From the IMG/VR virus record IMGVR_UViG_3300021225_000287, positions 3,826 through 67,825 of that record: a stretch of 64,000 nt of DNA; one strand, written 5' to 3'. Both the position numbers and the translations under genes were made by a program. Every line of letters starts with the position of its first letter. Position 1 is the stretch's first letter. Below the pieces are notes generated by a model. The model made no database searches and was not told the origin of the DNA. It worked only from the letters and a program-made list of their open reading frames with translations. Of this stretch, positions 3,674-11,085 are shown piece after piece. Origin of the DNA: a virus.

Positions 3674-3921
3674 TGGGATTAATCCTCGCCGGAGCCATGG
3701 TCCTCACTCCTACGGGGCGTGAGTACATTCAGCCTATGGGTGGCAACAGCTACAACATCTGGTCCAGCAATGGCATCACTCAGGTCAGGGATTTTGACGG
3801 GTGGACTCAGATCAAGGCTCCTGATGGGGCAACGACTACGATCTGGCCGGACAATGCGCGTGAGGTTCCTGTACTGCCTGTAGTCCCAGTTGGGACGGAG
3901 GGTGGTGATGGATCGGAATAA
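3670..3921 (+). CDS. Hypothetical protein with hydrophobic N-terminus
   Basis: ATGA overlap with the previous gene; GGAG RBS. Confidence 0.5.
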   Translation: MMGLILAGAMVLTPTGREYIQPMGGNSYNIWSSNGITQVRDFDGWTQIKAPDGATTTIWPDNAREVPVLPVVPVGTEGGDGSE

Positions 3922-7563: not shown

Positions 7564-7744
7564 CGAGACCTGCAAATGGATCAAGAAAAATCATCTGGTC
7601 TGGAAAACGGAGTGCGATCATCAAATTGGAACGCCTCGAAGCTGGGAGCCAGAAGGAAATTGCATGTGCTGCAAGAAACCATTGGAGGTAGTGAATGACA
7701 CCCGAAGCGAAGGTAAAGAAAGACATCAGGAAGATCTTGGATGA
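7556..7744 (+). CDS. Small Cys-rich (Zn-ribbon-like) protein
   Basis: TCKW...WKTECDH...CMCCKKP. Confidence 0.5.
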   Translation: MFDETCKWIKKNHLVWKTECDHQIGTPRSWEPEGNCMCCKKPLEVVNDTRSEGKERHQEDLG

Positions 7745-7997
7745 GTACGGTGCTTGGCACTGTATGCCTATGGGTACTGGCTATGGTAGGAGCGGGGTCC
7801 CTGATCTGCTTGTTTGTTATCTCGGAAACTTCATTGCCATCGAAGCCAAAGCAGGGGACAATAGGCCCACCGCGCTGCAAGTGCGAGAACTTGAACGAAT
7901 CAAAAAAGCCGGAGGCTACGCCTTGTTGGTCAACGAGTCCAACATTGATTACCTGAGGCAGCTTTTAGAGAAGATTAGAGAATGCCCACAATCATAA
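7695..7997 (+). CDS. VRR-NUC domain nuclease (Holliday junction resolvase-like)
   Basis: TPEAKVK...GRSGVPDLLVCYLGNFIAIEAKAG..PTALQ. Confidence 0.85.
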   Translation: MTPEAKVKKDIRKILDEYGAWHCMPMGTGYGRSGVPDLLVCYLGNFIAIEAKAGDNRPTALQVRELERIKKAGGYALLVNESNIDYLRQLLEKIRECPQS

Positions 7998-10666
7998 CGG
8001 TGGATCTGGAGACTTTTTACGACCGGGATTATTCCCTGTCCAAGCTGGCTACGGAAGGCTACGTTAACGACAAGCGATTTGAAGTGATCGGTGTTGGGGT
8101 GAAGGTAGGAGATGGCCCCACTGAAACTTGTACAGCGAACCGTAAGCAAACAGCCGAATGGCTGGACCGCTTCAACTGGGAGGACTCTTATGTCCTCTGC
8201 CATAACACACTTTTCGACGCCACGATTCTCTCGTGGAAGTTCGGAATCAAACCCAAGATGTGGCTGGACACCCTGTCCATGGCCCGCGCTCTGCACGGCA
8301 CGGAAGTCGGCGGATCGCTCAAAGCTCTGGCTGAATACTATGGTGTCGGTGAGAAAGGGACTGAGGTAATGAACGCGCTAGGTAAGCGCCGCATGCAGTT
8401 CAGGGAACCTGAGATCGAAGCATACATGCTGTACTGCAAGAACGATGTGGATCTGACCTACGAGATATTTAAGCGAATGGCCCCGCACTTTAATAAGGCC
8501 GAGATTAAATTAATCGATATGACTATCCGCATGCATACCGAGCCGAAGATGCTGCTGGATCAACAGGTGTTGAAGGATCATCTGTACAACGTACGTACAA
8601 AGAAGGAAGAGCTGATGGCGAAGATCGCCACGGATAAATCCGAGCTCATGTCCAATCCGAAGTTTGCCGAGGCTCTTATAGCACTAGGTGTTACACCTCC
8701 GATGAAGACTTCTCTGCGCACGGGTAAGGAGACCTACGCCTTTGCCAAGTCGGATGAGGAAATGAAGGCGCTGCTGGAGCATGAAAACCCAGAGGTGCAG
8801 GCTCTGGTGGCTGCAAGGATCGGTGTGAAGTCTACGCTGGAAGAGACCCGCACTCAGCGGTTCATCGATATGGCTGACAGGTTCGGTAAGCTTCCAGTTC
8901 CCCTCAAGTATTATGGCGCCATGACAGGACGTTGGGCAGCTACGGATGGGACCAATCTTCAGAATATCCCTAGGGGTTCAGTACTCAAGGAAGCGATCAC
9001 AGCGCCTGAAGGGTGGAAGATTGTCGGTGCCGACTTGTCCAATATTGAACTGCGTGTGGGCCTGTATTTTGCGGGTCAGATCGACAAGCTGAATCTTCTG
9101 GCTAATGGGGTGGATCTCTATAAGGACTTTGCCTCCGCCGTGTTCGGCGTGGGCTACGACGATGTGGATGAGTATCAAAGATTTATTGGTAAGACTTGTG
9201 TTGCCCATGGAACTCCAGTATTATGTGATTCAGGATGGAAGCCAATCCAAAAGGTGACCATAAACGACAAATTATGGGATGGAGAAGAATGGGTATGCCA
9301 CCAAGGATTACAATCGAACGGTTACAAAGAAACATTGAGTCTCTGCGGGAGTTGGTTAACGCCGGATCATCTAGTGTGGTCAGGGACCCAGTGGTTGGAA
9401 AGTCAATCAGTGGTTTCAGACTCGTACATCCTCTCCCAAGTATTGGACACAGGAGCGGCAAACTTACCGTTACAGGCTACATACAAGGCCCCAGAGGGGG
9501 TGTCGCCTCCCTCATTGTACGATGTGACTGCGGATGCCCCGAATACACTGTGGACAAACATAATTTCAAGGATTTCAAAAGTACGCGGTGCTATCAATGC
9601 GCTAGGAAAGCGGGCGCGACTAAGCGATATTGGGCCTACGTTGAGGCCCTCCCTGACGACGACCATAGAAGACGCTTACTCAGCAGGCTTGCTTCGGCCA
9701 TTACCCGCTGCCATAGCCCTTCGTACCCACGGTATAAAGATTACGGAGGTCGAGGAATATTTGTCTGCAGTGAATGGCGAACTGACAAAGCGGCCTTCCT
9801 TACGTATGTACAGTCTCTGGACGGCTGGGATAATCCAGCGTTTGAAATGGACCGTATCGACAACAGCGGCGGCTATGCTCCGGGTAACATACGATTCGTC
9901 TCCCGATCCGATAATGCTAGAAACAAGCGCACTATTAGCCAACTGCAGGAAGAAATATCTCGTCTACGACTTGCTCTCAGCCGGGCCGAGACATAGGTTC
10001 ACTATCTTAACTGACGCGGGTCCCGTGATAGTGCATAACTGCCAGCTCTCATTGATTTACGGCACGGGACCCGGCAAGCTTCGTAATGCCATCAAGATGA
10101 TGTCAGGAAAAGACATCGGCGCGGATGAAGCCAAGCGTATCGTGGACATCTACCGTAGGGACTACTCGCGTGTGAAGGAGTCTTGGTATGAGGGCGATAA
10201 GATGCTCTACGCCATGCGGGATAACACAGCCGCTGTGTTCGGCGAAGTGCTTCCCCTGCCTGTACTGGGCTCCGCAGGTATCAGGCTTCCATCAGAACTG
10301 TTCCTCAAGTACCCGGACCTCAAGCAGCATGTGAACGAGATGCAGAGGAAAGAATGGAGCTATGCGCAGCGCAAGGAGAGGGTGCGTATTCACGGGCCTA
10401 AGACTTTTCAGAATACGATTCAGGCACTGGCTCGGTGTGTGATGGGCGAGTCGATGGTGCGCATTGCTAAGAGACTGCCTGTAGCCCTGACGATTCATGA
10501 TGCGGTGTACTGTATGGTGCCGGATCAGATTGTGGACAAGGCCAAGAGGTTCATTGTGCAGGAGTTGAAGCGTCCACCTGAGTGGGCCATTGACCTACCT
10601 CTGGATGCCGAAGTAGGAGCAGGACAGAGCCTTGCATTCAAGATGAAGAAACTGGAGGGAGTATGA
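7982..10666 (+). CDS. Family A DNA polymerase with 3'-5' exonuclease, interrupted by an intein
   Basis: Exo motifs DLET, HNTLFD, YCKND; TGRW; NLQNIP; motif A DLSNIELR; motif B RFIGKT|CQLSLIYG; motif C TIHDA. Confidence 0.92.
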   Translation: MPTIITVDLETFYDRDYSLSKLATEGYVNDKRFEVIGVGVKVGDGPTETCTANRKQTAEWLDRFNWEDSYVLCHNTLFDATILSWKFGIKPKMWLDTLSMARALHGTEVGGSLKALAEYYGVGEKGTEVMNALGKRRMQFREPEIEAYMLYCKNDVDLTYEIFKRMAPHFNKAEIKLIDMTIRMHTEPKMLLDQQVLKDHLYNVRTKKEELMAKIATDKSELMSNPKFAEALIALGVTPPMKTSLRTGKETYAFAKSDEEMKALLEHENPEVQALVAARIGVKSTLEETRTQRFIDMADRFGKLPVPLKYYGAMTGRWAATDGTNLQNIPRGSVLKEAITAPEGWKIVGADLSNIELRVGLYFAGQIDKLNLLANGVDLYKDFASAVFGVGYDDVDEYQRFIGKTCVAHGTPVLCDSGWKPIQKVTINDKLWDGEEWVCHQGLQSNGYKETLSLCGSWLTPDHLVWSGTQWLESQSVVSDSYILSQVLDTGAANLPLQATYKAPEGVSPPSLYDVTADAPNTLWTNIISRISKVRGAINALGKRARLSDIGPTLRPSLTTTIEDAYSAGLLRPLPAAIALRTHGIKITEVEEYLSAVNGELTKRPSLRMYSLWTAGIIQRLKWTVSTTAAAMLRVTYDSSPDPIMLETSALLANCRKKYLVYDLLSAGPRHRFTILTDAGPVIVHNCQLSLIYGTGPGKLRNAIKMMSGKDIGADEAKRIVDIYRRDYSRVKESWYEGDKMLYAMRDNTAAVFGEVLPLPVLGSAGIRLPSELFLKYPDLKQHVNEMQRKEWSYAQRKERVRIHGPKTFQNTIQALARCVMGESMVRIAKRLPVALTIHDAVYCMVPDQIVDKAKRFIVQELKRPPEWAIDLPLDAEVGAGQSLAFKMKKLEGV
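9197..10039 (+). mobile_element. Intein (281 aa) inserted in polymerase motif B
   Basis: Block A CVAHGTPV, block B LTPDHLVW, block F VYDLLSAGPRHRF, block G VIVHN followed by +1 Cys. Removing it restores GKT-CQLSLIYG. Confidence 0.9.
9235..9996 (+). CDS. HNH-type homing endonuclease encoded in an alternative frame entirely inside the intein
   Basis: GKLTV...VRCDCG, STRCYQC, RCHSPSYPRYKDYGGRGIFVCSEW, EMDRIDNSGGYAPGNIRFVSRSDNARN. GGAG at 9281-9284 precedes in-frame ATGs at 9289 and 9295. Confidence 0.85.
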   Translation: MEANPKGDHKRQIMGWRRMGMPPRITIERLQRNIESLRELVNAGSSSVVRDPVVGKSISGFRLVHPLPSIGHRSGKLTVTGYIQGPRGGVASLIVRCDCGCPEYTVDKHNFKDFKSTRCYQCARKAGATKRYWAYVEALPDDDHRRRLLSRLASAITRCHSPSYPRYKDYGGRGIFVCSEWRTDKAAFLTYVQSLDGWDNPAFEMDRIDNSGGYAPGNIRFVSRSDNARNKRTISQLQEEISRLRLALSRAET

Positions 10667-11085
10667 CCAGACCTTTATACGAAAAGAAAGAACATCGTGA
10701 GTCTGCCTACAAGGCGGCCATGGAGATTGAAGATAAGACTTCTGCCAAGGTGGAGATGGGGCCGCCTATGGCACATTGGGATTTCATCATTCATGCGAAG
10801 AACAAGCCTGTAGCGATTGCCGACTTCAAGGAACGGTACAACACGCACGACAAGTACAAGACCTACTTCGTTTCTGAGAAGCGGGTGAAGAACCTGCTGA
10901 ATGAAGCGGTGGAACGTAACCTTAAACCTGTCCTGTTCGTGCGATGGACTGACGGCCTTCGGTGGTTGCAGATTGCTCCCAATGCGCATGTTGACCGCAC
11001 CATAGGTGGAAGGTACGACCGGGGTGACGCAGCCGATGTGGAGTACATGCTTCACTATTGGTCAAAAGATTTCCAGAGCGTATAA
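10663..11085 (+). CDS. PD-(D/E)XK-like nuclease fold protein
   Basis: WDFII...AIADFKER pattern; ATGA overlap with the polymerase gene. Confidence 0.55.
   Translation: MTRPLYEKKEHRESAYKAAMEIEDKTSAKVEMGPPMAHWDFIIHAKNKPVAIADFKERYNTHDKYKTYFVSEKRVKNLLNEAVERNLKPVLFVRWTDGLRWLQIAPNAHVDRTIGGRYDRGDAADVEYMLHYWSKDFQSV

Follow-up and report, generated by a model that had tools for sequence, protein, structure and literature searches.

In canonical inteins, the homing endonuclease is an in-frame domain of the same polypeptide as the splicing domain. Here, we describe an insertion in a family A DNA polymerase (PolA) gene in which an endonuclease-like protein is instead encoded as a separate gene in another frame. 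The insertion lies in a 64,000-nucleotide (nt) stretch of viral DNA, hereafter the window, which covers positions 3,826 to 67,825 of the IMG/VR virus record IMGVR_UViG_3300021225_000287 (67,825 nt, complete by CheckV, with the gene in single copy). According to our analysis, and with a probability that we put at roughly 80%, it is a class-1 intein whose endonuclease slot holds a separate gene of the HNH superfamily, on the same strand and in the +2 frame, by which the element would home. Its HINT splicing domain is interrupted at the position usual for class-1 inteins, of which PI-SceI is among the fold matches, and signs of homing and of decay into mini-inteins are likewise found.

Intein endonucleases encoded out of frame are as a category already known from preprints of 2025-2026. 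The accessible part of one of these describes actinobacteriophage inteins in which a homing endonuclease similar to endonuclease VII is encoded in 'reading frame 3', and proposes for it an origin as a free-standing gene that invaded an intein (Gosselin, Arsenault, Gogarten; bioRxiv 10.1101/2025.01.02.630785). The intein of the window resembles those described there in its same-strand +2 endonuclease open reading frame (ORF) within the endonuclease slot, in its structureless in-frame middle and in the existence of closely related intein-less alleles. In the same part of that preprint, the hosts are actinophages, Pol III alpha is listed and the nuclease is endonuclease VII (IPR004211), whereas here the host gene is a family A polymerase and the nested product belongs with phrog_374. 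Some cases of the preprint, whose supplementary tables lay outside our comparison, may overlap with the relatives considered here.

A second preprint, again as far as its accessible part goes, reports an out-of-frame +2 LAGLIDADG ORF in a cyanobacterial dnaX intein (Phillips, DeSimone, Gogarten; bioRxiv 10.64898/2026.09.14.751524). As described there, the dnaX intein and the present one have in common the +2 ORF, purifying selection on the endonuclease frame, a raised ratio of nonsynonymous to synonymous substitution rates (dN/dS) in the host frame and an in-frame middle predicted with low confidence. Upstream Shine-Dalgarno motifs are proposed in both cases, and mini-intein and intein-free alleles coexist. 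The frame-specific selection analysis applied there is also of the same type as ours. The dnaX intein differs in its LAGLIDADG nuclease, its dnaX extein and its occurrence in cellular genomes (cyanobacteria). Finally, the laboratory that produced both preprints has described ShiLan-type 'hidden HNH' insertions in phage DNA methylase genes (Arsenault, Gosselin, Gogarten 2025, PMC11855218). In the sections of that paper available to us, they too carry a third-frame HNH ORF in an insertion that is open in the host frame, and internal initiation is proposed for them; they have no detectable splicing domain, whereas the insert of the window has a HINT domain and all splice-junction residues.

Among cultured phages, the polymerase inteins of Jerseyvirus and Dhillonvirus members (Ent1, S55 and SO-1) match the present one in both frames, with identities of 28-34% for the intein and 43-49% for the HNH frame. 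A full-text literature search, with subscription journals and supplements outside its reach, found no account of the two-frame layout for family A polymerase inteins or for Jersey-like or Dhillonvirus phages.

The polymerase ORF of the window encodes 894 amino acids (aa) with the intein and 613 aa once the insert is removed, and its product matches the Pfam families DNA_pol_A (8.8e-26) and, for the 3'-5' exonuclease domain, DNA_pol_A_exo1 (8.9e-09). The insert (9197-10039, 843 nt) is stop-free in the polymerase frame and separates GKT from CQLSLIYG of motif B. It shows Cys1, LTPDH, VYDL and a terminal His-Asn, followed by Cys+1. Its longest nested ORF (9235..9996, + strand, 253 aa) is offset by +2 from the intein frame and begins with an ATG that is not conserved; the remaining same-strand frame has 25 stops across the 843 nt. 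A preliminary description of this DNA, made from the letters alone, had reported the 843-nt in-frame intein with Cys1, TPDH, VYDL and HN|C (the bar marks the junction), the second frame of 253 aa, a GGAG at 9281 with ATGs at 9289 and 9295, and a spliced polymerase of 613 aa. All of these features are present, and the last figure follows from the ORF by computation. The observation is thereby confirmed, and its interpretation, namely that the endonuclease is made as a separate protein while the intein frame is held open, is supported by the comparative data below.

Relatives were sought by tblastn of each frame against 50,697 phage records and by a scan of IMG/VR. For the intein frame, 179 phage records gave a match, which in 153 cases covered 80% or more of the frame, with 28-34% identity among the 30 matches listed, and the HNH frame matched the same places under the polymerase gene with 39-50% identity. 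The phages matched include Salmonella Jersey-like phages, Dhillonvirus SO-1 and EP23, Pseudomonas MR14, Vibrio 97.13 and EBPR siphovirus 2. The IMG/VR scan gave 52 loci, consisting of 44 full-length inteins, four cut by contig ends (L034, L036, L042 and L053) and four mini-inteins. The full-length loci represent 37 distinct sequences, or 38 with the window; the codon-permutation set comprises 37 sequences, with L008 outside it, and L031 lies outside alignment A1 and the trees.

In all 44 full-length IMG/VR relatives (26-55% intein identity) the intein frame contains no stop, while the +1 frame has 10-42. The +2 frame is open over 241-288 codons in 43 of them and over only 170 codons in L031, so that, as the preliminary description had suggested checking, both frames stay open in homologues save for one truncated HNH frame. 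The layout is identical in the cultured phages MR14, S55, EBPR siphovirus 2 and Vibrio 97.13, which were read directly. This bears on the possibility that assembly or sequencing frameshifts broke a canonical intein with an in-frame HNH domain, an idea for which the metagenomic origin of the virus record might speak. The recurrence of the frame relation in 44/44 relatives and four cultured phages rules out such frameshifts. A metagenome contig from sequencing run X1, about 95% identical to the window, has no indels, and two compensating errors would not keep the first frame stop-free. The comparative data thus refute the assembly-error reading.

The openness of the two frames is far beyond chance. 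When the HNH codons of the window copy were permuted synonymously, 8.3 stops were predicted in the intein frame and none of 2000 permutations was stop-free. Across the 37 sequences, 2.5-9.2 intein-frame stops are expected and none is observed in any of them, with stop-free permutations amounting to at most 3.1% for any sequence. The earlier claim that the intein frame is held open is well borne out by these numbers.

To which frame selection applies was read from the variability of codon positions in the 38 distinct, codon-aligned sequences, and from the ratio of nonsynonymous to synonymous proportions after Nei-Gojobori (pN/pS) for 75 pairs of 70-97% nucleotide identity. At intein residues 1-75 and 256-281, the most variable codon position is intein position 3. 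Between them, at residues 76-255 (9422-9961), variability peaks at intein position 2, the third position of the HNH codons. The pN/pS values switch in the same way: in the middle region, 0.23 in the HNH frame stands against about 1.3 in the intein frame, a constraint for which the preliminary description had proposed to look, and both ends show the reverse (Table 1). The wobble switch and the pN/pS values together indicate that, at the protein level, the outer parts are read in the intein frame and the central part in the HNH frame. The contig of run X1 shows the same pattern over a short evolutionary distance (40 of its 94 differences are listed), with HNH third positions accounting for 13 of 14 differences in the middle, and intein third positions for 7 of 9 in the N-terminal portion. 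The passenger stretch of the intein frame, residues 95-246, is translated within the precursor, is unselected as a protein and is merely kept stop-free, in line with its first description as a by-product.

The two ends of the intein frame fit a splicing domain. Residues C1, H58, H280 and N281 are invariant across 42 sequences. In the AlphaFold model built from the alignment of these 42, blocks of 10 residues reach a predicted local distance difference test score (pLDDT) of 91-97 at residues 1-90 and 86-96 at residues 251-281, and residues 95-246 stay below 50 throughout. In a Foldseek search of the PDB with this model, the top 18 matches are inteins or other HINT-type proteins (Vint, bacterial intein-like) with probabilities of 0.99-1.0, E-values of only 5e-3 and weaker, and template modelling scores, relative to the target, of 0.33-0.46. 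The shortest mini-intein, L040, retains residues 1 to about 93 and about 238 to 281, which coincide with the structured parts. The Pfam comparison that had been proposed for both frames yielded no intein or HNH family at E <= 1, and the whole protein gave PolA domains only. The intein frame does match phrog_93 'endonuclease' (E 9.9e-12), which is most simply a by-product of homologous two-frame inteins inside that family. From sequence and model together, we infer that the insert is spliced as a protein, leaving a polymerase of 613 aa.

An insert with an HNH ORF could also be a group I intron in which the open polymerase frame is incidental. The record of Sodalis phage SO-1 indeed labels its nested gp39 and polymerase 'type I self-splicing intron', and HNH genes are frequent in phage group I introns according to the sections available to us of one paper (PMC11855218). 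However, an Rfam scan of 8900-10400, which covers described families only, found no intron family at E <= 10, its single row being a chance match to DicF (E 5.4). In addition, the host frame contains no stops in 37/37 sequences against the 2.5-9.2 expected, the flanks of the nested gene are under protein-level selection in the host frame, the predicted HINT fold comes with Cys1, HN and Cys+1, and all four deletion derivatives are in frame. We therefore regard an intron as highly improbable, and return to the intein with a nested gene.

The nested frame has a conserved potential start. The codon at column 9295 of the +2 frame is ATG in 37/38 copies and GTG in the remaining one. In the intein frame, the A of this ATG is the last base of a Val codon and its TG opens a Cys codon, so that the Val has to be GTA, a codon that accounts for 388 of the 1567 Val codons (24.8%) in the same genes. 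GGAG- or GGAGG-like purine runs lie 5-10 nt 5' of the ATG in the 38 relatives. Upstream of 9289, the +2 frame is closed by a stop in 24/38 copies, and 37/38 have none in 9289-9960. The nested start is lost in two of the four mini-inteins that lack the HNH core (ATA and CTG) and in none of the 38 HNH-bearing copies. Other columns are less suited: at 9235 and 9274, a start-type codon occurs in 29/38 copies each, with stops following in many copies, and the ATG or GTG at 9289 in 37/38 is not evidence for a start because any Glu-Trp pair yields that codon. In the distant cultured phages, the likely start is nevertheless the ATG equivalent to 9289, two codons upstream.

The same data speak to the route by which the HNH frame is reached. 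The +2 frame corresponds to a -1 shift, and 14/38 copies have no HNH-frame stop in 9199-9288, as would suit a programmed -1 frameshift that fuses N-extein, N-intein and HNH protein. We consider such a frameshift very unlikely, since no conserved slippery heptamer (X_XXY_YYZ) was found, the motif occurring at one column and in 3/38 copies only, and since a start codon stands at 9295 in 38/38 at the cost of a particular synonymous codon, with the frame closed upstream in 24/38. Conservation of the start, the upstream stops and the missing slippery site make internal initiation the best-supported route. Whereas the preliminary description had named initiation and frameshifting side by side, the former is now favoured, and the nested gene would be translated separately from ATG 9295.

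The nested product belongs to a widespread protein family. It matches phrog_374 'HNH endonuclease' at E 1e-33 and four further PHROG HNH endonuclease families, including phrog_2081 (3.7e-22), 3377 (6.3e-22) and 953, and more weakly phrog_1035 'endonuclease VII' (6e-6). Residues C77, C79, C99, C102, H124, D186, N198, N207 and N210 are invariant in 37/37 members. An AlphaFold model of the +2 frame has a mean pLDDT of 85.9 and shows a helix at 7-22, a beta domain with the invariant CxC...CxxC, further helices, strands at 183-187 and 199-203, and a long helix from 204. The nested-gene core was matched by 852 phage records. Many of these relatives are annotated as separate genes, and several of the matches listed are annotated as HNH endonucleases. 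Judged by its pN/pS of 0.23, the nested protein is clearly functional, and it is likely to cut DNA.

Longer proteins with the HNH relative in frame gave 50 matches (444-2000 aa). Among the eight of these scanned with Pfam, none has a PolA domain, and the eight are fusions or neighbours of methylases, YqaJ and a GyrB-like protein. In one protein, P0043 (1096 aa, GyrB/Toprim-type), the HNH relative occupies the N-terminus (residues about 1-290) and is not an intein; this may be a true fusion or a read-through of gene calling. Another arrangement is found in Escherichia phage phi G17 (NC_070870; L075, 1226-4648), where gp29, 26% identical to the nested protein, is annotated as a separate gene between the DNA polymerase I ORFs gp30 and gp28. 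The polymerase of phi G17 is split upstream of motif A, at a site that differs from that of the window's intein.

The distribution of the intein is patchy among close relatives. No intein interrupts the closest exteins (L054-L057; 78-85% identity across 199 N-extein residues), in which the site reads GKT|SQLSLIYG, and the closest inteins (55% identity) lie in polymerases that are just 67% identical to that of the window. Within samples, runs X3 and X4 each contain an intein-bearing contig together with short contigs that join the C-extein to an intein-less ...GKT-Ser. A contig of run X2 differs at 4 of 469 nt of the intein (99% identity), and upstream of the intein its polymerase sequence ceases to resemble that of the window at 9167, at a distance of 30 nt from the insertion point. 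Uncovered stretches in runs X2 and X4 are not informative. The intein is thus polymorphic for presence and has been transferred recently. Going by the sequences, the patterns in X2-X4 and the intein-less close relatives are what homing with a short co-conversion tract would be expected to leave behind.

Signs of decay are also present. The four mini-inteins of 137-182 aa (L037 3001-3546, L039 2143-2574, L040 1311-1721 and L041 3001-3474) carry frame-preserving deletions of the HNH core, with lengths divisible by 3, and keep remnants of both ends of the nested gene. Locus L031 (3001-3843) has a premature stop in the nested frame. Together with the four deletion derivatives, it fits the usual decay phase of such elements.

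Based on these observations, we posit the following course of events. Ribosomes would read the polymerase mRNA straight through the insert. Residues 1-94 and 247-281 of the intein would fold as the HINT domain and excise all 281 residues to give the 613-aa polymerase, and the structureless middle of roughly 150 residues would leave with the intein. From an internal start at ATG 9295 behind the purine-rich stretch, a protein of 233 aa would be made in which a helix at either terminus flanks a small zinc-ribbon/beta domain and, after it, a nuclease-like beta-beta-alpha core. Most likely, this protein would cut or nick intein-less polymerase alleles (GKT|S...), and repair would copy the intein and the nested gene into the cut allele.

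A number of findings weigh against this reading. Because the sequences are phylogenetically related, fewer independent events lie behind a count such as 37/38 than the figure suggests. The Shine-Dalgarno-like bases double as codons for the conserved DGEEW of the intein, so that their conservation is not independent evidence. Over its first 42 codons, the nested ORF shows no purifying selection in its own frame (HNH-frame pN/pS 0.98). Our search of sequencing runs returned no run with half or more of the sampled words and no convincing RNA dataset; the candidate RNA runs contain 0.05-0.11 of the words and are uninformative on expression.

Further points concern the nuclease itself. The Arg of D-R-I-D stands in the column that we take, from typical HNH motifs and not by superposition, to be that of the canonical first His; it follows an invariant Asp and is Arg in 36/37 members and Ser in 1/37. 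Catalysis may therefore be unusual or absent. No Pfam HNH family was found in any of the 37 members at E <= 1, the only matches being coiled-coil-type families (CapR, bZIP) on the C-terminal helix, and NCBIfam gave nothing for the nested protein. A profile search of PDB sequences returned two chance-level rows only, and Foldseek with the +2 model found no match in the PDB at E <= 0.001. In the wide VIA-align comparison, no match reached Z >= 5, most being Tudor/SH3-like barrels on residues 26-105. The best relevant match is PacI (3m7k_A, Z 4.2, root-mean-square deviation 3.9, 90 residues aligned), the only nuclease of note among these matches, with Hpy99I at Z 3.0 on the N-terminal beta domain. 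We do not take these weak matches to mean that the fold is novel. The 'well-formed' HNH nuclease of the preliminary description therefore stands as regards the PHROG HNH families and the conserved Asn and Cys residues, and falls short as regards the canonical first His and a Pfam HNH model.

These observations would suit a nested protein that is under selection and yet is no classical homing nuclease, for instance a DNA-binding or nicking factor that excludes competing phages, or an inactive HNH derivative. The missing first His, the lack of a Pfam HNH match and the weak fold matches to solved HNH enzymes all point in this direction. The invariance of D186, N198, N207, N210 and the four Cys, as well as the strong PHROG HNH matches, point away from it. 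The same is true for the footprints of homing described above, namely closest relatives that lack the intein, alleles with and without it in one run, and an intein of 99% identity within a divergent extein, and for the decay into mini-inteins. On balance, we consider a role other than homing unlikely, and continue to favour a homing intein with a nested endonuclease gene.

How the two genes came together is a further question on which the insertion sites give some indication. Among L002-L051, there are two insertion points in motif B, four codons apart. The site GKT|C(Q/I)L... is used in the window and 13 other distinct loci, and the site GKTTILG|CGYGMG in 24 distinct loci. Where the intein is absent, the residue at the first site is Ser or Thr, and a native Cys sometimes occurs at the second. 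In the tree of the splicing domain, the inteins of site A (one of the two motif B sites) form one clade (95/90). The tree of the HNH core needs three changes of site, and a single site-A clade is marginally rejected there by the approximately unbiased test (p = 0.023). The histories of nested gene and splicing domain may accordingly be separate in part. We tentatively raise the possibility of a two-gene partnership, in which an endonuclease gene of free-standing type uses the intein as a harmless landing pad, swaps scaffolds and carries the scaffold between motif B sites. The two insertion sites, the not fully congruent trees and the many relatives annotated as separate genes count in its favour. 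If this partnership were true, the family, which has homologues in easily grown Salmonella and E. coli phages, could represent a living intermediate of the 'splicing first, endonuclease invades later' origin of inteins.

The coordinates of all features are given in Table 1. Next to the polymerase gene, an upstream ORF of 100 aa (7695-7997) overlaps the start of the polymerase ORF by 16 nt, and an ORF of 140 aa (10663-11085) begins over the polymerase stop codon.

Table 1. Features of the intein-bearing polymerase gene in window coordinates, with the evidence on which each is based.
Feature	Position	Strand	Evidence or values
Family A DNA polymerase precursor gene	7982..10666	+	ORF list; Pfam matches
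N-extein	7982-9196	+	part of polymerase ORF
C-extein	10040-10663	+	part of polymerase ORF
Class-1 intein in polymerase motif B, 281 aa	9197..10039	+	splice motifs, open frame, HINT matches
N-terminal half of HINT splicing domain, residues 1-94	9197..9478	+	pLDDT, wobble, pN/pS, mini-intein L040
Intein-frame 'passenger' stretch, residues 95-246	9479..9934	+	pLDDT <50, pN/pS about 1.3, 0 stops, deleted in 4 mini-inteins
C-terminal HINT part, residues 247-281, blocks F and G, HN	9935..10039	+	pLDDT, wobble, pN/pS
Purine-rich Shine-Dalgarno-like stretch, GGAG at 9281-9284	9281..9294	+	sequence; inference only
Nested HNH-family gene, +2 frame, 233 aa, TAG at 9994-9996	9295..9996	+	conserved ATG, phrog_374, AlphaFold
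Nested-gene core (middle region) under HNH-frame selection	9421..9960	+	pN/pS 0.23 in HNH frame, 1.26-1.30 in intein frame; wobble; invariant residues
CxC...CxxC zinc-ribbon-like motif	9523-9600	+	within nested-gene core
Beta-beta-alpha motif with D-R-I-D...N...N	about 9841-9939	+	within nested-gene core
N overlap	9295-9420		pN/pS 0.98 in HNH frame, 0.25-0.27 in intein frame
C overlap	9961-10035		median pN/pS 1.27 in HNH frame; intein frame pN 0.107, pS 0.447

Existing annotation of the homologues shows how such genes are overlooked. As the preliminary description had anticipated, the curated record of Salmonella phage vB_SenS-Ent1 (HE775250; L076) lists the polymerase intein as 'encoding splicing domains' only; a second intein of this phage, in the helicase, is annotated with a LAGLIDADG endonuclease. 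The record of S55 gives an 'intein-containing DNA polymerase precursor' without a nested ORF, that of Sodalis phage SO-1 (NC_013600) an intron with a nested HNH gene, and further homologue records a plain polymerase. Standard pipelines call these polymerase inteins endonuclease-free or plain polymerase, so that a mobile nuclease gene has probably been missed in more than 150 sequenced phages, including Salmonella and E. coli phages studied for biocontrol.

What is new here is the combination of an HNH-type nuclease with a PolA extein, found in phages of Gram-negative and environmental hosts. With it, the inteins with out-of-frame endonucleases extend to a third type of nuclease and to a new host gene. 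The intein-less alleles and transferred copies within metagenomes provide direct population evidence of ongoing transfer. A substitution that leaves the intein residue unchanged could abolish the nested start, so that splicing and homing would be separable in a culturable relative.

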